Positions 1-10,103 are shown, counted from the first letter of the stretch. The stretch is 10,111 bases of DNA from Pseudobdellovibrionaceae bacterium (GCA_041288045.1 JBGGMM010000071.1:1-10111); one strand, 5' to 3'. Numbers and translations: made by a program. The notes: generated from the sequence alone by a model not told the origin.

Positions 1-683
1 GTCATGGCTCCTCTTTTTCCTTTGCATGTTAAGTGAAGAGATCCAGGGAAAAACTTCGCCACGTCGGCTGGATAGTGGGGATTTTGATCAGATCGAATTA
101 CAATATCATCTTCCACGAAGGGATGGATTTTTCGAAATAAATCTTTTCTGCCTAATGGTCTATGGTCTTTTCTAAATCCATATTTTTTCACTGAAATTGC
201 AGCAAGCTTTCCTTTAGCCGGCATTTTTGAGACTTCAAAGCCAAGAATTCGCCTTGTTTTTGATTCCACAGCAAGAGTGATAGAAAGAGGCTTACACTTT
301 GAGTGCTCAAAGGTTTCTAGATCATCAAACTGAATGTCGATGCACTTGGGTTGATTGAGATTGTGTGACTGAACTTGGATTTTGGCTTTTTCAGAAAGAA
401 AAAGAAATTTTCTGACAACCGTGATTCGATTGAGATTTAATATTTTAGCAGCCCTTCTTTGTGAGACACCAGAGCAGAAGAGCTTTCTGAGGATTTCATT
501 TTTATGTCGTTTGTTTTGCCGAAAGCAAGGGTCAGAAGTGGCTTGAGAAAAGCCTGCATGGCATGATTTGCAGTAAAACCTGGTAATCCACCTGCCATCT
601 GACTTTCGCCAAAATCTTCCCCGGCGAACGACATTCGGACGATTGAAGGGGTGAGGAAGGCATAAGGGGCATTTGGCACTCAT
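1..683 (-). CDS. IS1/IS1595-like DDE transposase homolog (Zn-ribbon + HTH + DDE in one ORF), 3' end outside the window
   Basis: My own translation from the ATG at 683 is open to the window edge (227 codons): MSAKCPLC...RFYCKSCHAGFSQAT (CxxC...CxxC ribbon), SGVSQRRAAKILNLNRITVVRK (HTH), IQFDDLETFEHSKCKPLSITLAVESKTRRILGFEV (first catalytic Asp strand), IRSDQNPHY (second Asp, like IS1/IS1595 'SDG..Y'). Absent from the ORF track because no stop lies in the window. Confidence 0.85.
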   Translation of the reverse strand, partial: MSAKCPLCLPHPFNRPNVVRRGRFWRKSDGRWITRFYCKSCHAGFSQATSDPCFRQNKRHKNEILRKLFCSGVSQRRAAKILNLNRITVVRKFLFLSEKAKIQVQSHNLNQPKCIDIQFDDLETFEHSKCKPLSITLAVESKTRRILGFEVSKMPAKGKLAAISVKKYGFRKDHRPLGRKDLFRKIHPFVEDDIVIRSDQNPHYPADVAKFFPGSLHLTCKGKRGAM

Positions 684-1355: not shown

Positions 1356-1958
1356 TCAGTGCTGATAGCCCTTTGGGAATTTGTGCAAACGGGCCAAAAA
1401 ACTTTCGATGAGATTTCGATCCATCCTCGTGTCGTTGCCGCTCATCCCCTTCCACAGATTGACCGGCAATAAAAACAGGCTCGAGTAGACAGTTGAATCG
1501 GCCCTCAAGTGCAGGGGCTTTCTCATCGAAACCGAAGTGACAGAAAGGCAGCGACCTTCCTCTTGCCAATAGGGAACCAAAGTCCAAGTCAGGATTGAAG
1601 AAAATCGCCAGAAACTGCGGGCCCCAGAGGTCTCCTCTTCATTTCCATAATCGCAATCCTTGAATTCAAAATAAAATTCATAATCAGGGTTCTGGGTCTG
1701 ATTGATGGAGGCAAAAAACTGCTTTGATTCGACGAATTCTTGCATTTCAACCTGGTACGTTGACTGATGTTTCTCGGTGGCATGAGGCAATCGATTGAAA
1801 TGCAAAGTGACTTTTCTTTGTTTCCAAAAGGCACTGCCTCGTATGGCAGGAGGATCCGCTTTTGGAACAGAAACACAACTGACACACACGAAAAGAGTGA
1901 GAAGAAGAGATCTCTTTTGCATCCTCTTAACGTTGAATGATCTCTCGGAAACAGTCAA
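1356..1958 (-). CDS. Hypothetical putative lipoprotein (~200 aa; start TTG 1958 or ATG 1922)
   Basis: Basic N-terminus, hydrophobic stretch and Cys (KRSLLLTLFVCVSC), an imperfect lipobox. Internal hydrophobic patches SILTWTLVPYW and YSSLFLLPVNLW. AGGGA lies 5 nt before the TTG. Confidence 0.7.
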   Translation of the reverse strand: MTVSERSFNVKRMQKRSLLLTLFVCVSCVSVPKADPPAIRGSAFWKQRKVTLHFNRLPHATEKHQSTYQVEMQEFVESKQFFASINQTQNPDYEFYFEFKDCDYGNEEETSGARSFWRFSSILTWTLVPYWQEEGRCLSVTSVSMRKPLHLRADSTVYSSLFLLPVNLWKGMSGNDTRMDRNLIESFLARLHKFPKGYQH

Positions 1959-1963
1959 TTCAA

Positions 1964-1998
1964 TCCCTGGACGTCGAGGTCGATCTGTCCTCCAGGGA
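1964..1998. other. Intergenic inverted repeat / hairpin
   Basis: TCCCTGGA (1964-1971) and TCCAGGGA (1991-1998) are perfect reverse complements. GGAC (1969-1972) and GTCC (1987-1990) offer an alternative pairing. A T-run follows on the + strand. Confidence 0.5.
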
Positions 1999-2037
1999 GG
2001 CTCTTTTTAATTAAATATGGAATTATTTTTATTCGAC

Positions 2038-2481
2038 TTACTGCTCTAGTGTCATCGGAAGAGAATCATCGTCTGAGCGAAGCGGTTTCGGAGAAGAGGT
2101 TTTGGTGCCGGCCTCTGAGCTCTCCAGATTCTGATTGACCTTATCCACATCCGGAATTGGAAAGTTCTCTGATGTCACCTGTTTGCCTGTATCAATGATT
2201 CGAACTCGAGTTGGGGCCACGATTTTCGACTTTGATTTGGATTTTTTTGAAGATTTAGATTTCTTCGAATCCTTGTCTGAAAGATCGATCACTTCGGTGA
2301 CTTCTCCAGCTTGAATCGGAGTCTGCGCCTGTGCCAGGAGCCTTTTTTTCTTGCTGGATTTGAGATGCTGAGCTGACTTTCCCTGTTTCATGCAAGCGGC
2401 TGCCCGAGGAAGGGAAGTGAACAAAAGGGAGCTGCCAAAGAGAATCGACAGAATGTAAATAAAGGCTTTCTGAGTTTTCAT
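2038..2481 (-). CDS. Basic Lys/Ser-rich exported hypothetical protein (~147 aa)
   Basis: ATG 2481 (MKTQKAF...) has the SD AAGGGGG, so it is preferred over the track start at 2517. Hydrophobic N-terminal segment followed by the low-complexity SKKSKSSKKSKSKSK. Confidence 0.75.
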   Translation of the reverse strand: MKTQKAFIYILSILFGSSLLFTSLPRAAACMKQGKSAQHLKSSKKKRLLAQAQTPIQAGEVTEVIDLSDKDSKKSKSSKKSKSKSKIVAPTRVRIIDTGKQVTSENFPIPDVDKVNQNLESSEAGTKTSSPKPLRSDDDSLPMTLEQ

Positions 2482-2518
2482 TGGTCCCCCTTTCTTTCGT
2501 CCAGTTCTTAAATTCATC

Positions 2519-2664: not shown

Positions 2665-4017
2665 CTATTCAGTTGTTCTCGACCGAGGCGTCTCAGAATG
2701 AGAAAACCCCAGCTGCAGGATTTTCTGGGCAGCCTTTAGACCTGAGTCCAGGGCGCCATGCACAGTGCCTCGATGTCGATCGGGTGCAGTGGCTTCGCCT
2801 GCAAAGTACAAAGTGTCCTCGAAGGGCCTGGTCAGACGCTGAACCGCCTTCGCCCCACCCACGGTGATGTAGCTATAAGCTCCGAGAAAAAAGGGATCTC
2901 GGGACCAATTGTGAGTCATCCACCCTTGGAGCTGCTCACTGAGATAAGTGATGGACCTGCCAGTGATTTCCGAGAGGGTCATCAACGCCGTTTTGACTCT
3001 TTCTTCTTCGCTCCATAGAGACATTTCGGTGGCTTTCGGGCCCCCTTGCCAAGCGGTCAAGAGTGGAGCCCGCATGGGCATCACAGTCCACCAAGTCGGA
3101 AAATATTTATCGGGACCGGCATGGAGAAAACCAATCGGCTTCTCTGAAAGTTCCTCCCAAAAGCGATTGCGAAAATGGAAAATGAATCTTTGCACTTCGC
3201 CCATGCGCATTCCTTCCAAAGCATTTTGCAATTCTTTTGGAAATGGATCCCATTCAATGGCTGCCTTGGCGGCTTTTGGTGCCTTCAATACACCCAACGG
3301 CACAGTGACAACCACGGCTTTGGCCAGAAAAGCTGGAAGGGGAATACCAGTGTTTGTTTGTGCTTCAATGCGCACATGACCACTTCGCCAAGTGATCTTT
3401 TTGACGAGAGTTTGAAGTCTTAGAATATTCTCATCCGGCGGGAGAGAATGCACGAATCCCTGAAACAATTGATCATAGCCACCTGAAATGCGAAACATCT
3501 GTGAGCCGTTCAATGATGTTTCCTGAGTCTGTTCGGATTTCGCAAGCCCAGCTTCGCTCATCAAATGCAAATCTCCCGCATGGAAGCCTTCGACGAAAGC
3601 TTGAAAAGCCTGACGATCTTGCAAAGAAATTCTTTTTTGTGATTCTAAAAAATCTAAAACCGATCGATCCTTGCCAGGCTTTTCTTGCAAATGCCCGGTG
3701 ATTTTTTGCAGTCGTTCCCAAAAGTCGTCAAGATTTTGCAATTTTCCATCTTGATAAAAAAGGTGATTGTCACAGGCATCGTAGAATGACAGACCGAAAG
3801 TTTCAAAAGACTTCAATGTCGCTGAAGGTGCTCCATGAATAAATTCAGCTCCGAGCTCAAATGGAGTTTGAAGGCCCGAGTCGCGCCAAGTGAGGATTCT
3901 TCCACCCACTCGTGACTGAGCTTCCAAGATTAAAACTTTCAATCCACGTTTGAGAAGCTCATGAGCACAAGCAAGCCCTGAGATCCCGGCTCCAATCACA
4001 ATCACATCAGCACGCAT
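2665..4017 (-). CDS. FAD-dependent flavin monoamine oxidase family protein (Amino_oxidase, PF01593-like), ~450 aa
   Basis: N-terminal dinucleotide-binding motif VIVIGAGISGLACA...LEAQSRVGGRI, then ELGAEFIHG, VVVTVPLGVLK, WSRDPFFLGAYS, LYFAGEAT...GTVHGALDSG. SD GGGAGG 5 nt before ATG 4017. No signal peptide. Confidence 0.95.
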   Translation of the reverse strand: MRADVIVIGAGISGLACAHELLKRGLKVLILEAQSRVGGRILTWRDSGLQTPFELGAEFIHGAPSATLKSFETFGLSFYDACDNHLFYQDGKLQNLDDFWERLQKITGHLQEKPGKDRSVLDFLESQKRISLQDRQAFQAFVEGFHAGDLHLMSEAGLAKSEQTQETSLNGSQMFRISGGYDQLFQGFVHSLPPDENILRLQTLVKKITWRSGHVRIEAQTNTGIPLPAFLAKAVVVTVPLGVLKAPKAAKAAIEWDPFPKELQNALEGMRMGEVQRFIFHFRNRFWEELSEKPIGFLHAGPDKYFPTWWTVMPMRAPLLTAWQGGPKATEMSLWSEEERVKTALMTLSEITGRSITYLSEQLQGWMTHNWSRDPFFLGAYSYITVGGAKAVQRLTRPFEDTLYFAGEATAPDRHRGTVHGALDSGLKAAQKILQLGFSHSETPRSRTTE

Positions 4018-4136
4018 GAGCACCTCCCTTCATTTTCTAGCTTGAAATGAGAGGCGCTGGGATGAATGCCGGCAAGCGGTTGTGAAAATGCAATTTGAAA
4101 GTATTTTCAGACTTTGGTCGAAGTCATTTCTAGTTT

Positions 4137-4377: not shown

Positions 4378-5877
4378 CTAGGGAACCACGCTGAGCTGGA
4401 GACTGGTGGAGCCCACTCCAACTGCATTTCTGCCAGTAATTTGGTAAGTCTTTGCAGCTTGCAGGGCTTTGGCAGATCCCGAAATTGTACAGCTGACCGG
4501 ATTGAAACTGATTCCATTTGGCAGTGCTAGGTTGATTGCACAAGAAGCGGGCAGACTGCCGCGGCCTCCATTGCTTCGAAGCGCTAAACTCACGCGCGCC
4601 CCTTTTTTTAACACGAAGGACTTGGCTGCATAAATCAGAACTGGCGGGGCCAGCACTCGCAATGTCAGCTTTGTTTGACTGGCTCCCACTCGATTTCTAG
4701 CAGTGATCACATAAGTTGAATATCCGCTAAGAGAAGTCGGCGTGCCACTCAGGACGCACCGATTCGAAAGCACGAGGCCCGCCGGAAGACTGTGATCAGC
4801 TCGGCAAGATTCAACTGCATTTCCTCCATAAACCGGGATCAGCGAAATCGCTGCGCCTCGCTTTAATGAGTAACTGCCTGAAGAGTAGTGTAGGCTCGGA
4901 GGCGTCATGATGCGAATGTCGACGTAGACTTTGTAAGTACCAGCAGAATTCGTGGCAGCGATTAAATAGCGAGTGGTCCCCTGATTTGTTTGTGGAATCC
5001 CGGTGATTCGGCAATTGGCGGTATCCAATTGAAGGCCCGCCGGAAGGGCCGGGCTGACTGAGCAGGTTCGAATGGGTCCTCCCGAATTTCTGATATCCAA
5101 CTGTCCCGTTAAAGCTGAATTTCTTCTAAGAACCACAGAAGAAGAGCGATAGCGGATCGAAGGGCGAGCTAAGTAGCAACCGTAAGATTCAAACTGTGGG
5201 AGATTTCTTTCACTGGAAAGTGGAGCACTCAAATCCGTGTAAATATCAAAAGTGAATTTGCCGCCATCGGTTCGAACTCCCACGGGTCCCTGGAATGGAA
5301 TATCTTGATTTTCTATCATTCCACTCCAAGCTTTCACTCCTGATGCGTAAACATTCAAAGTCTCGTTTTCATATTCAGCCTGTAGACGGTATTTTCTTCC
5401 GATTTGCAGGGCTGAAACAGTTTTACTCAGACTTGGAGTCAGATTTGTATAGCCCTCAGGCCCACACTCCGAATGGTTTTTCATTCCGTCGTTTCGCTTC
5501 AATGTCACTTTCAAAGGGCCTCCAGCGACAGGCCACATCACATAAAGAACATTGCATGAATTAGCAGCTCGAAGTTTCAAACCGATCTGACGGTGACCAT
5601 TGGGATTTGCAGCCGGGTCGTTGATTGGCGCCAGGTAGGTAAAGTCAATTCGGATTTTCTGTTCCGTCGGAGTGGTGACGACAGAGCGAGAAGTAGCGGT
5701 AGTAACCTCGATAGATTCAGCCGAATTGGTTTGAACTTGACCGTTGGTCGCACAGATCAGGTTGCGAGGAATGCGGGCCGTGAGTTGAGTCTGCGCTAGT
5801 GCTTGCTGTCCCAAAATGAGAAAACAAAGAGCTAACAGCACGAGAATAAAATTGAATTGGGTCATCGCTTTTTTCAT
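4378..5877 (-). CDS. Secreted/surface protein: N-terminal beta-sandwich (ConA/lectin-like, tentative) plus three putative Ig (He_PIG-like) repeats, ~499 aa
   Basis: Signal peptide MKKAMTQFNFILVLLALCFLILGQQALA. Three repeats with LPAGLQLDTANCRITGIP, LPAGLVLSNRCVLSGTPT and LPNGISFNPVSCTISGSA, each followed by Y.I.(A/G).N..G and each containing a Cys pair. ATG 5877 is preferred over TTG 5901. Confidence 0.85.
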   Translation of the reverse strand: MKKAMTQFNFILVLLALCFLILGQQALAQTQLTARIPRNLICATNGQVQTNSAESIEVTTATSRSVVTTPTEQKIRIDFTYLAPINDPAANPNGHRQIGLKLRAANSCNVLYVMWPVAGGPLKVTLKRNDGMKNHSECGPEGYTNLTPSLSKTVSALQIGRKYRLQAEYENETLNVYASGVKAWSGMIENQDIPFQGPVGVRTDGGKFTFDIYTDLSAPLSSERNLPQFESYGCYLARPSIRYRSSSVVLRRNSALTGQLDIRNSGGPIRTCSVSPALPAGLQLDTANCRITGIPQTNQGTTRYLIAATNSAGTYKVYVDIRIMTPPSLHYSSGSYSLKRGAAISLIPVYGGNAVESCRADHSLPAGLVLSNRCVLSGTPTSLSGYSTYVITARNRVGASQTKLTLRVLAPPVLIYAAKSFVLKKGARVSLALRSNGGRGSLPASCAINLALPNGISFNPVSCTISGSAKALQAAKTYQITGRNAVGVGSTSLQLSVVP

Positions 5878-5910
5878 GAAAATTCGCTCGCACCTTTTCA
5901 AATAGAAAAT

Positions 5911-6048: not shown

Positions 6049-6666
6049 TTATCGAGCCTCATAGCGATGAGAGATTTCCTCGCCTGTTTTGATGTCGGTT
6101 CCGCGGAGCGTGACTGCGATGAGTTTGTGAAATGGGGGCACGATGGTTTTTTTAGATTCCGAGTAAATGCTTTCCAGGTTGATCGTTGCGTTTTGATCAG
6201 AAGGGCCAAGAGTCATCAAAGCTTCGACTTTGCAATCGCCATCAGCCTCTTTTTCAGCTTCTGCGCGAATATCCAGATGAGGATCGGCAATGTCGTTTTT
6301 GACTTCGGAAAGATCGTTGATTTTGACTGAAAATCGGTCTGGGTCTTTGCTCGATACTAATGACAGTCGCTCTCGGATTTCATTTTTTATCATCTGATGA
6401 ACAGGTTTGTAATTCTTGCGATCCATTTTCCAATAAAATTCAAAGACGGGCTGTTTGCCTTTCTTGATGAAATGGCAATTCGAATCCACTTGGGTGTAAA
6501 TCACCATGATGTTTTGAGGATTTTGATTTTTTTCCAGCAGAAAAAGTTGGTGGTGGAGACCGACTTCTCCAAAAGAAGGAATTTCCTGAGCCCCAGCTAA
6601 GAGTGAACTGGTGAACCCAGCCAAAAAGAGTCCAAAAGAAGTCCATTTCCTTTTGCCATTAGACAT
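6049..6666 (-). CDS. Secreted DUF4833-like protein (~205 aa)
   Basis: ATG 6666 has the SD AAGGAG (the track start at 6792 overlaps the opposite gene). Signal peptide MSNGKRKWTSFGLFLAGFTSSLLAGA. Motifs LFLLEKNQNPQNIMV, PVFEFYW and LESIY...VTLRGTDIKTGEEIS resemble DUF4833 as I recall it; not verified by search. Confidence 0.65.
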   Translation of the reverse strand: MSNGKRKWTSFGLFLAGFTSSLLAGAQEIPSFGEVGLHHQLFLLEKNQNPQNIMVIYTQVDSNCHFIKKGKQPVFEFYWKMDRKNYKPVHQMIKNEIRERLSLVSSKDPDRFSVKINDLSEVKNDIADPHLDIRAEAEKEADGDCKVEALMTLGPSDQNATINLESIYSESKKTIVPPFHKLIAVTLRGTDIKTGEEISHRYEAR

Positions 6667-6739: not shown

Positions 6740-6754
6740 TGGTACTCAACCTGC
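6740..6754 (+). promoter_or_regulatory. Putative sigma-54 promoter for the copper amine oxidase-like gene
   Basis: TGGTACTCAACCTGC(A) = GG-N10-GC, 32 nt upstream of GTG 6786. Confidence 0.6.
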
Positions 6755-6785
6755 AGTTTCAGCTCGAAGACCTCAAGGAGGAATC

Positions 6786-8348
6786 GTGGCAAGCTTGCTT
6801 TTCATTTCGTTTCTTTTTGGCATTTCAGCATGGGCTCAATCTCTTCAAGTGAACGTCAACCCTGTTGGGATGAGTGAGACTGAGAGATCTCAGCTCCAGG
6901 ATCGAATTCTTCAGTACCCCGAAGTTGAAAATTTGTTGCGCAACAAATCGTTTCGAGTTCTTGCATTGCAAACAGAAGATCTGGACCCCGAGAATTCTGA
7001 ATACAATCTTCAGGTTTACAATGAAACAGATGATCAGCTTTATGAGGTGAACGGCCCCCTCAATATGAGCATTACGCCCCAAATTTTGGAATCTTTTGAA
7101 GAGATTCCGGCAACTCCTGAAGAATTTGAAGCTGCATTTAAAATCCTGTCCGAAGATCCACAGCTGGGACCCCTGATTCAAGCGCAAACTCTTTTACCCT
7201 ATGAAGCCATGCCTCCCATTCTTCAACCCCACCGGTTGATTCCTGTCGGCTTGATTTCAAATTCGAACCCGAGCTCGAGGCCACATGAAATTGTCGGCGT
7301 GGATCTGAGCTCTCGACAAGTGACTCGATTTCCAAAAGGAGCACCAGCTGGCGCTATCGCAATTGAACAAGTTTGTGGAATGCCCAATGCTCATCAGGCC
7401 AATACGGCCAAAGGAGTGCGGGGATCCGCTGAAATTGAAATTGAGAAAGGTGATCAGCTTCTTTGGAGTTTCACTGTGATTCGACCTTCGGCTTCTTCAG
7501 GAAAAAAAGGTTCTGGGCTGGAGCTTCGCAATCTTTACTACAAAGGGAAAAAAGTTTTCTCACGGGCCCACACTCCCATTCTCAATGTTCAATACGATGA
7601 CAACCGCTGCGGCCCATTCCGAGATTGGGGCTATTCAGAAAATCCTTTCGTCGCTGTTGGAAGCAATTTGGCACCCGGAATTCGACTTGCTTCTGAGCCA
7701 CCCAAAACCATTTTCGATACTCATGATGATCGCGGGCAGTTTCGAGGAGTTGCGATTTATTCAAGCGAAGGGCTTGTGACTTTGACGACCGAACTTTCGG
7801 CAGGTTGGTATCGCTACGTGAGTAAATTTGAACTTTATGATGACGGACGAATCAAACCGATTTTTCAATTTTCCGGAGTCACGAATTCTTGCGTCTGCTT
7901 CAGTCACCATCATAACGTCTACTGGCGCATTGATTTTGATGTCCAAGGCGTGAACAATTCCATTCAAGTTTCCAACGGGTCTACATTTCGAGTGATTCCT
8001 GAAGAAATTTCTCAAATCAAAAGTCCAGAAAACCAAGTTTGGAGAATTGGAAATTCTGTAACCGGAAGTGCCTATGACCTCACACCTGGAGCTTCTGACG
8101 GAGTCGCCGATGATTACAGCATCGCTGATGTTTGGCTTTTGAGATATTCACCAACACAGATTGACGACTCGAGAGTCAGGACTTCCACGAAGGCGGCTTT
8201 GAATGCCTTTTTAACTGGTGGTAACTTGGTTCAGCGGGATGTCGTGATGTGGTACACAGGTCACTTTGCTCATCTCACGGGCGAAGCCGAAGTAGGACAT
8301 GGAATTGTCGGCCCCACCTTGGCTCCGGTGAACTGGCCCGAAGAGTGA
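6786..8348 (+). CDS. Secreted copper amine oxidase-like protein with non-canonical quinone site (520 aa)
   Basis: SD AAGGAGG before GTG; signal peptide ending in AWA. CAO landmarks appear in the expected order: LNVQYDD...FRDW (candidate base D280), AGWYRYVSKFELYDDGRIK (position of xNY(D/E)Y...F..DG.I), HHHNVYWRIDFDVQG..NS (HxH...RLDxDVDG..NS), and DVVMWYTGHFAH (third Cu His, H496). Confidence 0.8.
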   Translation: MASLLFISFLFGISAWAQSLQVNVNPVGMSETERSQLQDRILQYPEVENLLRNKSFRVLALQTEDLDPENSEYNLQVYNETDDQLYEVNGPLNMSITPQILESFEEIPATPEEFEAAFKILSEDPQLGPLIQAQTLLPYEAMPPILQPHRLIPVGLISNSNPSSRPHEIVGVDLSSRQVTRFPKGAPAGAIAIEQVCGMPNAHQANTAKGVRGSAEIEIEKGDQLLWSFTVIRPSASSGKKGSGLELRNLYYKGKKVFSRAHTPILNVQYDDNRCGPFRDWGYSENPFVAVGSNLAPGIRLASEPPKTIFDTHDDRGQFRGVAIYSSEGLVTLTTELSAGWYRYVSKFELYDDGRIKPIFQFSGVTNSCVCFSHHHNVYWRIDFDVQGVNNSIQVSNGSTFRVIPEEISQIKSPENQVWRIGNSVTGSAYDLTPGASDGVADDYSIADVWLLRYSPTQIDDSRVRTSTKAALNAFLTGGNLVQRDVVMWYTGHFAHLTGEAEVGHGIVGPTLAPVNWPEE

Positions 8349-8451
8349 TGAGAATGCAGGTTGAGCAAATGCTCTGAATTTTTCTGGATTGCCGAATGGG
8401 AGCAATTTCAAATAATCTCTACTGAGGCCTTTTGATTCTGGGGAGGGCCAT

Positions 8452-9495
8452 TTGAAATTGAATCCAAGCAATTTATTCTCGATTTTAAAAGTCAATTCAG
8501 CGCCAACGCCCTGGCATCACATGTGGCTCGTGGGTCTGGCCACTTTCATTCCCATATTGATGGGGCTGGCGACGAATCATCTGGAAATTTCTGTTCTTGG
8601 TTCGGTTGTTGGTTTTTTGGTAGCGCTGAACGATCATTTTGGCAAATGGGGCCATCGCCTTTGGGTCATGAGTTTGACATATCTTCTTATTCTCTTCGGG
8701 TTTTTTCTGGGAACAAAAGTCGGAGAGGGGCCTTTATTCTGGCTGACACTGGGTGGCTCCGTGTATTGGATGGGAGTTCTCTCTGGACAAGGAGCTGAGC
8801 TAGAAAAGGGATTCACTTTTGGCCTCGTGGGATTTCTTGTGGCCCAAGCTTCGCCGGAGCTTCCCTCAGAAGTTTTGCCCGCGCTTTTTCTTTTCGTCGT
8901 CAGCGGCTATCTGACACTTTTGTTGGCGATTCCATTATTGGCATTGCTTGGAAAGCTCGATCCAAAGCCTTATCGAAGCCTTCGAGAATCTCTCAGCCAT
9001 TTACTTTCAAAACGAATTCAAAATCACATTCACGCCGCGAGCTTCACGGTCGCAGTGCTATTTGCAGCCCGATTGGTCTTGGACCTGCATTTGGAGCGGG
9101 GCTATTGGGTGACGATCACAGTTCTGCTTGTCATGCGCCCGGATCGCACTCAATCCATTCAGATTATCCTTCAACGATTGATTGGAACTTTGCTAGGAGT
9201 GCTCGCTGCTGAATTGATTCTTCTCAGCTCGCCCCCAATCGCTTTTCTGATCGCAGTCACGATTCTCTGTGCCTCAGCCGTCCCCTGGGCCAGTTTGAAA
9301 AATTATGCCGGCGTTGCCTTCTTTGCCACGGTCATGGTTGTCCTGCTTCTAGAGCTCAATCAAATCAAGCAGGGCTTCGACACCCACCTTCCCTGGGTGA
9401 GACTCCTAGCCACAGCCATGGGCTGCGCCATCAGTTTGATAGGAACTCTCATCTCAAAAATATTGGACACTCTGATTCTAAAGAAACCAATCTAA
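8452..9495 (+). CDS. FUSC-family (fusaric acid resistance / aromatic acid exporter-like) inner membrane protein
   Basis: Many transmembrane segments. ERGYWVTITVLLVMRPD...QRLIGTLLGV and C-terminal RLLATAMGCAI are typical FUSC_2 motifs. SD GGGAGG before TTG. Confidence 0.9.
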   Translation: MKLNPSNLFSILKVNSAPTPWHHMWLVGLATFIPILMGLATNHLEISVLGSVVGFLVALNDHFGKWGHRLWVMSLTYLLILFGFFLGTKVGEGPLFWLTLGGSVYWMGVLSGQGAELEKGFTFGLVGFLVAQASPELPSEVLPALFLFVVSGYLTLLLAIPLLALLGKLDPKPYRSLRESLSHLLSKRIQNHIHAASFTVAVLFAARLVLDLHLERGYWVTITVLLVMRPDRTQSIQIILQRLIGTLLGVLAAELILLSSPPIAFLIAVTILCASAVPWASLKNYAGVAFFATVMVVLLLELNQIKQGFDTHLPWVRLLATAMGCAISLIGTLISKILDTLILKKPI

Positions 9496-10103
9496 CTCCA
9501 AAGCACCTGCCAATCCGCTGTCGAAAGCCCTCTGAGTCTTTGCTTGGAATACTTGATTTCACCTTTCTCTTCTTTTTCATTGAGTCTGATATAGTTCCTA
9601 ACAGTCAGATAAGCTTTCCACCCTTTCACAACTCGTGTGAAAGGCCTGAATTTCCAAAGCTTCGTCTTCCTTCCCCCTGTCTTTGTGGGGACTTGTCTTG
9701 ATCCCTTAGTTGGGTGGGGGGTATCCGTCACCAAGAGATTGTTCTTTCCAAATTCCTGAGCAATTTGTCCTGCCACAACTCTTAGAAAATGCTGAGCGAG
9801 AGATCTTTTTGAGATTCTGATCAATAAATGAATGTGATCTCCACAGATGGCCTTTTGCTCGATCTTCACGAAAAACTTTTTCGAGTAGCGCTTGAGCACT
9901 CTTTCACAGATGGAAAAAGCGAGAGGTGACCGAAACCCCCGGCGCATCCCAAGGCGATCGGCTTTGAGCACTAGATGAATCGGGTCTCGAGAAGAAAGAG
10001 GCCTGGCACCGCGACCTAAGCGTTTTTGTCGTAAGATCCCGCCGTGTGTGTAGCGGAATTTCCAGTGAACTTTTCCGAATTCAAATCCTAGTTGTTGACC
10101 CAT
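9492..10103 (-). CDS. HUH/Y1 tyrosine transposase (IS200-like / REP-associated RAYT-like), 203 aa
   Basis: IHLVLK strand, HUH motif GDHIHLLI (H90/H92), LW..RPFTRVV, and a catalytic-Tyr helix AYLTVRNYIRLN. N-terminal HGGxLRxKRxGRxxRPL extension. Its stop codon overlaps the FUSC stop. Confidence 0.85.
   Translation of the reverse strand: MGQQLGFEFGKVHWKFRYTHGGILRQKRLGRGARPLSSRDPIHLVLKADRLGMRRGFRSPLAFSICERVLKRYSKKFFVKIEQKAICGDHIHLLIRISKRSLAQHFLRVVAGQIAQEFGKNNLLVTDTPHPTKGSRQVPTKTGGRKTKLWKFRPFTRVVKGWKAYLTVRNYIRLNEKEEKGEIKYSKQRLRGLSTADWQVLWS

Follow-up and report, generated by a model that had tools for sequence, protein, structure and literature searches.

Positions 6786–8348 (plus strand) of the window, by which we mean the whole 10,111-nucleotide stretch of Pseudobdellovibrionaceae DNA analyzed here, carry a gene for a compact protein of 520 residues. 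By profile alignment and a predicted structure, this protein is a member of the copper amine oxidase (CAO) structural superfamily that stands apart from the canonical topaquinone (TPQ) amine oxidases, because it lacks the consensus cofactor motif and the dimer arms, though the fold and the catalytic set are retained. It belongs to a family, named W-Y-R-Y after the residues at its putative cofactor site, which is a real variant of the CAO fold, widespread and to all appearance uncharacterized. To judge from the sequences, the family likely makes its cofactor or selects its substrate differently from known CAOs, since the neighbors of the cofactor tyrosine are replaced and the dimer arms are absent.

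Fold and distribution of the family

The gene is supported by its open reading frame, by homologs that cover 95–100% of it and by an AlphaFold model with its Foldseek and VIA comparisons. Its start codon is GTG, preceded by an RBS-like AAGGAGG (6775–6781) in which AGGAG (6776–6780) lies five bases 5′ of the start; a promoter and terminator scan performed at about chance level and gave no site 5′ of the gene. All residue positions named in an earlier note on this DNA were correct in this frame. Residues 1 to about 17 (6786–6836), a hydrophobic N-terminal helix in the model, are likely a Sec signal peptide, and all close homologs of the protein also score as having one by the hydrophobicity heuristic used for these calls. 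Global hhalign alignment and the VIA range (residues 25–520) then delimit D2/D3-like N-terminal domains at about residues 20–190 (6843–7355), with no D1 stalk, and the D4 catalytic beta-sandwich occupies about residues 212–520 (7419–8345), in which gaps in the alignments to TynA and AGAO mark the absence of both beta-hairpin arms and of the E-D-W-P-x-M-P loop.

Membership of the CAO superfamily, which the earlier note had proposed, was borne out by several comparisons. The protein passes PF01179 narrowly (32.6 bits for a gathering cut-off of 27, the best stretch being residues 365–404) and scores 12.7 bits with NCBIfam PRK11504 (primary-amine oxidase), below the cut-off of 651. Searched against the PDB as a single sequence it had no real match (best E-value 0.31); the family profile reached AGAO with an E-value of 4.9e-7. 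The AlphaFold model, built with an alignment of 120 sequences, has a pLDDT of 93.7 and a pTM of 0.92; a model of the catalytic domain built with no alignment (pLDDT 35.8) was left out of the analysis. The best Foldseek matches of the full-length model are AGAO and other CAOs (E-value 2.9e-20, TM about 0.60), it has a TM of 0.73–0.74 to canonical CAO clusters in Atlas, and VIA superposes it on AGAO over 428 residues (Z 26.7, rmsd 4.5), so that the predicted CAO fold runs along the whole length. Global profile-profile alignment with 20 canonical CAOs (E. coli TynA and 19 others) spans D2-D3-D4 with a probability of 99.8 and an E-value of 7.7e-27; in it, segments of about 19 and 12 residues are missing where canonical CAOs have their two beta-hairpin arms, a loop of about 23–26 residues is missing ahead of the HxH, and the Met of E-D-W-P-x-M-P falls opposite a gap.

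With AGAO (PDB 1AVK, 3KII) the protein shares the D2-D3-D4 fold and the positions of the cofactor Tyr, of the HxH and distal His, of the O4-binding Tyr and, probably, of the base Asp, but identity is only about 17–19%, and the protein is about 100 residues shorter, has W-Y-R for N-Y-D and no motif Thr, lacks the arms and the E-D-W-P-x-M-P loop, and carries a likely signal peptide and other cysteines. E. coli TynA (ECAO) likewise has an exported CAO fold, but at 757 residues against 520 it possesses the D1 stalk, both arms and the loop of about 23 residues that are missing here.

A word-seeded search returned 704 matches among 7997 scored candidates, the best 120 of which are mostly 450–600 residues long and are unnamed, "hypothetical" or automatically named, as the earlier note had anticipated for its homologs in databases. 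A profile search of 50%-identity representatives returned 439 matches at 1e-30, 1076 at 1e-10 and 1787 at 1e-3, the two weaker tiers of which may take in sister families. W-Y-R-Y is present in 144 of the 150 best representatives at 50% identity, the others being truncated (two) or variant (four); counted in the same 150, with gaps scored as misses, conservation is 147 for W341 and Y270, 146 for Y342 and D280, 143 for H376, 132 for H374 and 121 for H496. Together with the fold and the PF01179 score, these counts uphold the notion of a divergent subfamily with a conserved rewired site.

A genome scan over 49 of 64 parts gave 584 confirmed stretches, and 79 loci were retained, from Bdellovibrionota, Actinomycetota, Acidobacteriota, Bacillota, Bacteroidota, Proteobacteria, Omnitrophota and one Thermoproteota record. 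WYRY occurs in all 82 gene copies within these loci, which were retrieved through family motifs other than WYRY; both tallies include the unpublished genomes G258 and G273 (loci L019 and L034). The closest named relatives of the protein are Bdellovibrio-like, with about 50% identity. The distribution is patchy: none of 40 relatives of the host genome (G000) carries a match, and strong matches occur in 6 of 301 genomes of the host phylum, G000 included, with eight more weak ones. The heuristic found a signal peptide in 101 of 267 homologs and none in 97 (69 could not be scored), so the earlier description of the protein as secreted stands for the 520-residue protein but fails for about half of the family. 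Tandem arrays also occur, of three family genes at L025:5680–11330 and of two at L035:5974–9617. A literature search conducted largely outside subscription journals and supplements found no published study of a W-Y CAO.

The putative cofactor site and the sister families

A-G-W-Y-R-Y (residues 339–344; 7800–7817) sits on canonical V-G-N-Y-D-Y in the global profile alignment and on G-N-Y-D-Y of AGAO and TynA, which places Y342 (codon 7809–7811), within G340-W341-Y342-R343-Y344, at the position of the cofactor precursor. For the T-x-x-N-Y-D/E consensus the protein has S-A-G-W-Y-R; the replacement of Asn by Trp and of the acid by Arg had been noticed earlier, and the motif Thr is gone as well, its position (338) having its modal residue in only 39% of homologs. 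In the numbering of the TynA precursor, Y342, H374, H376, H496, Y270 and D280 correspond to Y496, H554, H556, H719, Y399 and D413, the first with posteriors of 0.96 and 0.84. Y270 (7593–7595) thus corresponds to a conserved Tyr of known CAOs whose side chain is hydrogen-bonded to O4 of TPQ (PMC3382800). H374-x-H376 (7905–7913), where H374, H375 and H376 were all confirmed, and H496 (8271–8273) align with the canonical HxH and distal His and are the predicted Cu ligands. The putative catalytic base D280 (7623–7625) falls on the canonical Asp only through a bridge of Streptomyces sequences (posteriors 0.48/0.72), the direct alignment being four residues off. Alignment therefore backs the residue assignments of the earlier note, moderately so for D280, and fold and alignment together would put Y342 near the His triad. 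Within the family 46 positions (residues 212–516) are at least 90% conserved, but the catalytic domain has no more than 17 columns that are both identical and at least 85% conserved in the W-Y-R-Y, Streptomyces and canonical groups; they include V268, Y270, D280, Y342, Y344, H374, H376 and H496.

We hold with moderate confidence that the protein is a Cu/Tyr-quinone amine oxidase with a remodeled site, a reading for which we count the presence of Y270, D280, Y342 and the three His among these common columns, the structural match to AGAO, the joint loss of H374 and H496 in some members and the copper oxidase genes beside others (both described below). Cu bound by H374, H376 and H496 would, with O2, oxidize Y342, positioned by Y270, to a self-processed quinone of the topaquinone type; Trp341 would take over the steric job of the Asn as a wall controlling ring rotation, and D280 would act as the catalytic base. 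The enzyme, probably an armless monomer, would act extracellularly, turning a primary amine into an aldehyde with release of ammonia and hydrogen peroxide, and its arm-free open site would suit a bulkier substrate. Deletion of the two dimer arms makes a more open site, already suggested in the earlier note, plausible. Known CAOs are described as obligate dimers, arm-locked in all solved structures, whose arms form the back wall of the partner subunit's active site (PMC3382800).

The Asn beside the TPQ tyrosine is called strictly conserved in PMC3382800, and a survey of plant and animal CAOs reports a plant clade without T/S-x-x-N-Y-D (PMC12058724). AGAO N381A still forms TPQ, at 1/180 of the rate and with 1/160 of the kcat (PMC9491219), and HPAO N404A reaches 5–10% TPQ while E406Q is tenfold slower (PMC3382800); judged by these mutants, TPQ formation does not depend absolutely on either the Asn or the acid. 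The mutants resemble the W-Y-R-Y family in that TPQ is possible in them without Asn, but they are engineered, impaired and carry a smaller residue, whereas in the family a larger residue has been fixed by selection. What speaks against a TPQ enzyme is that Thr, Asn and acid, three of the four residues by which the motif is defined, have been lost, single Asn mutants of known CAOs being already 10- to 180-fold impaired (PMC3382800, PMC9491219). Moreover, ring rotation belongs to TPQ biogenesis, which needs a 180-degree flip (PMC11951088), and Trp341 might block this flip. Also on this side stand the obligate dimerization of known CAOs, the PRK11504 score far below its cut-off, the moderate posterior of D280, the members described below that have lost canonical Cu ligands but not W-Y-R-Y, and the lack of recurring neighbors for amine catabolism.

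The ring flip and the deep conservation of the Trp led us to weigh also a copper enzyme that makes another cofactor from its tyrosine, in which Trp341 blocks the flip after dopaquinone and the reaction ends in an ortho-quinone, a Trp-Tyr crosslinked quinone, a Trp-stabilized tyrosyl radical as in galactose oxidase, or an oxidized Trp. We consider it improbable. No residue lies nearer to the TPQ ring than the Asn (PMC9491219), so that a Trp at the same position is likely to touch the ring, and the Trp is common to three families that are about 21% alike or less and apparently predates the loss of the arms. On the other side, the O4-binding Tyr and the putative base Asp have been retained, both positions serving the Schiff-base chemistry of TPQ. 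Joining two residues that follow each other directly in the chain causes strain, which counts against a Trp-Tyr crosslink, and the available text of the 2025 cofactor review (PMC11951088) contains no Trp-Tyr cofactor of a CAO. Lysyl oxidase (LTQ) and galactose oxidase/GlxA (Tyr-Cys radical), which also occur as gene neighbors, resemble the CAOs in having self-processing Cu/Tyr cofactors, but their folds are unrelated and they offer a precedent for alternative Tyr cofactors only.

The Trp also occurs in sister families of the W-Y-R-Y proteins. When 201 genomes of another phylum were searched with PRK11504, weak matches came up that are W-Y proteins. Among them is a large Streptomyces family with 604 matches among 7995 scored sequences, most of which bear the name "copper amine oxidase" or "primary-amine oxidase". 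The best 120 of these 604 all have W-Y-E-Y, in line with the conservation of WY(R/E)Y that the earlier note had proposed to look for. These proteins match our family with a profile probability of 99.8 and resemble it in the Trp before the Tyr, the His triad and the putative base Asp, but they have lost neither the arms nor the acid nor the Met loop, and have no CxC. In both genomes where the upstream gene was examined, D2/D3 and D4 are encoded by separate genes; in the Streptomyces-like loci L115:6060–8352 and L116:6794–9015, a leader-bearing D2/D3 gene for 272–276 residues lies directly 5′ of the D4 gene, which has a leader of its own, beside genes which we take to be glycogen-debranching-like. 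A third form, an armless D4-only protein of 349 residues with G-W-Y-Q-Y and the His set (L106, genome G051, 1462–2508, minus strand), is possibly a minimal CAO.

In known CAOs the acid after the cofactor Tyr contacts a His on the arm of the partner subunit. All 120 armed W-Y-E-Y proteins have this acid, and the armless W-Y proteins have Arg or Gln. The order of Trp gain and arm loss, read from an unrooted quick tree, suggests that the Trp arose first and that the acid was released on loss of the arms (N-Y-D/E to W-Y-E to W-Y-R/Q); under the amine oxidase reading the acid would have been free to become Arg once the partner's arm was gone. The W-Y-R-Y family may be viewed as a natural experiment that breaks the rules of the strict Asn and the arm-locked dimer and leaves the rest of the site intact, and one purified member could show the minimal needs of TPQ biogenesis, the need for a dimer and whether the CAO fold admits other cofactors. 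The motif that defines CAOs is also missing from at least 120 Streptomyces proteins, although most of them go by the names "copper amine oxidase" or "primary-amine oxidase". For biocatalysis, an amine oxidase that is small, open at its active site and possibly monomeric would be useful.

Histidines, cysteines and predicted metal binding

Co-variation was scored in 132 sequences, parsed from the 139 of 150 representatives that span the region (seven were dropped). Of these, 116 have both H374 and H496, 12 have neither and four are discordant, and the joint loss is as expected for joint metal ligands. Eleven of the 12 sequences lacking both have Arg at position 374 (P0174, P0180, P0206, P0207, P0224, P0227, P0233, P0244, P0251, P0259 and P0266) and keep A-G-W-Y-R-Y, D280, Y270 and H376 intact, as if the guanidinium stood in for the metal. 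A single origin of this subgroup found no support in a quick tree of 83 rows (the 11 H374R sequences, four other His variants, the query, 55 random members and 12 outgroups), computed with the trait columns left in, on which the H374R state requires five changes, at least three of them forced by branches with SH-aLRT of at least 95.

Since the 11 H374R members retain WYRY, D280 and Y270, WYRY can outlast the canonical Cu site, and conservation of the motif is weak proof of catalysis because the His-less members still carry it. Such repeated loss of the ligands around an intact core is what might be expected of a noncatalytic binder of copper or amines, that is, a pseudoenzyme, a Cu store or a donor to neighboring copper oxidases, in which the Tyr would be unmodified and the W-Y-R-Y core would be retained for structure or ligand binding. 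Additional His point the same way: those at H262 (7569–7571), position 377 (7914–7916; Asn in our protein) and H493 (8262–8264) are family-specific and conserved, and a variable loop rich in His and acidic residues follows H496 (8274–8306); together they may form a second metal site, and H262 and H493 co-vary weakly (p = 0.025). We nevertheless find the binder doubtful, for the whole catalytic set is present in 116 of the 132 members, the 520-residue protein among them, and the positions of D280 and Y270 are catalytic in known CAOs. Several homologs, besides, carry fused accessory domains of the kind often seen in secreted enzymes: extracellular domains (T9SS tail, P-domain, fn3, Ig, BACON) were seen in 13 of 36 homologs picked for length or His loss. 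H493, which the earlier note had considered as a possible Cu ligand, was ruled out as a canonical one, for it aligns to a canonical Gly and does not co-vary with H374 (p = 0.73, n = 132).

The CxC motif, C369-x-C371 (7890–7898), had been hinted at as part of the catalytic rewiring, but its two cysteines behave separately, each with a partner of its own. C369 co-varies with C275 (7608–7610), 122 of the 132 sequences having both, 10 neither and none only one; C371 co-varies with C197 (7374–7376), with 121 having both, five neither and six discordant, four of which are N-terminal fragments. Three sequences retain C197 and C371 and lack C275 and C369. Cysteines have been lost more often where a signal peptide is missing (9 of 36 against 1 of 75; Fisher p = 1.4e-4, although related sequences are not independent). 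The pattern makes it likely that the CxC contributes to two structural disulfides, C275–C369 and C197–C371, which would have a stabilizing role in the proposed amine oxidase. A second metal or redox site tied to catalysis, either Cys4 zinc or a thiol switch, appears very improbable to us: it would account for the retention of all four Cys in 118 of the 132 sequences and of the C275/C369 pair in 27 of the 36 members that have no signal peptide, a group in which one would look less for disulfides and which leaves room for a zinc site, but the pairwise losses, the three sequences with C197 and C371 only and the enrichment of loss in members without a signal peptide speak against it, and most Cys-less members retain the His triad and WYRY.

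Gene neighborhood and host contig

Copper oxidase genes recur beside members of the family. In 7 of 79 loci (L055, where the gene is broken over two frames, L057, L068, L069, L075, L076 and L078) a gene similar to galactose oxidase/GlxA follows 3′ in the same orientation, for 0.089 expected from 39 PF09118 matches in 21 of 77 host genomes, or 0.081 with the unpublished genomes G258 and G273 left out of the background. The seven loci represent three lineages, with five in Solirubrobacteraceae (four genomes), one in Variovorax and one in Flavobacterium; taken as three independent events the adjacency has a P of about 1e-4, in a test chosen after the data had been seen. Tyrosinase genes lie 5′ of a family member in two of the 79 loci (L029 and L046) and a lysyl oxidase gene lies beside one in a single locus (L058); a multicopper-oxidase-like gene, identified by motif only, was observed at L071. 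Gaps to the Cu oxidase neighbors are operon-like in L076 (19 bp) and L029 (34 bp).

These neighbors support a copper-dependent oxidative role, which an enzyme and a copper donor fit alike. The operon-like positions in L076 and L029 favor the binder, as does the lack of amine-catabolism neighbors, no aldehyde dehydrogenase or amine transporter recurring among the 133 of 147 flanking ORFs that were scanned. Against it, the host genome (assembly 83% complete) offers no Cu oxidase to be served: tblastn gave no match to galactose oxidase, tyrosinase, lysyl oxidase or canonical CAO. The enrichment of copper radical oxidase genes also counts for a different cofactor. In a broader proposal the whole W-Y clade (armless W-Y-R-Y, split W-Y-E-Y and minimal W-Y-Q-Y) would carry a non-TPQ, protein-derived cofactor, such as a Trp-Tyr crosslinked quinone or a Trp-stabilized tyrosyl radical, and would act as a monomer with copper radical oxidases on extracellular polymers; we rate this proposal, too, as unlikely. 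No operon partner conserved across phyla was found, and recurrent neighbors track taxonomy: FtsH and an S1/P1 nuclease recur in Bdellovibrio-like loci, and SelB, a hydrolase and a cytidylyltransferase recur in Blastocatellia.

The gene's own neighbors in the window are unrelated. They comprise a flavin amine oxidoreductase (2665–4023, minus strand), a protein with three He_PIG Ig repeats (4378–5901, minus strand), a divergently oriented DUF4833-like gene (6049–6666, minus strand), for which the Atlas value of 0.89 is no more than a lead, and a FUSC_2 membrane protein (8452–9495, plus strand). The flavin amine oxidase was examined as a partner and set aside, for it is absent from the recurring neighbor clusters and its presence was taken as coincidence. 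The contig ends carry an IS1-like transposase (3–683, minus strand; 40.6 bits, below the cut-off) and a weak ORF similar to IS200/REP-associated tyrosine transposases (9492–10103, minus strand). The GC content of the CAO-fold gene (0.468) is close to that of the genome (0.465). A 17-nucleotide inverted repeat, 88% complementary, closely flanks the gene (6745–6761 and 8349–8365); its 11-nucleotide core has four copies in the genome for 1.4 expected and occurs in none of 10 related loci checked, and the repeat is possibly a product of chance.
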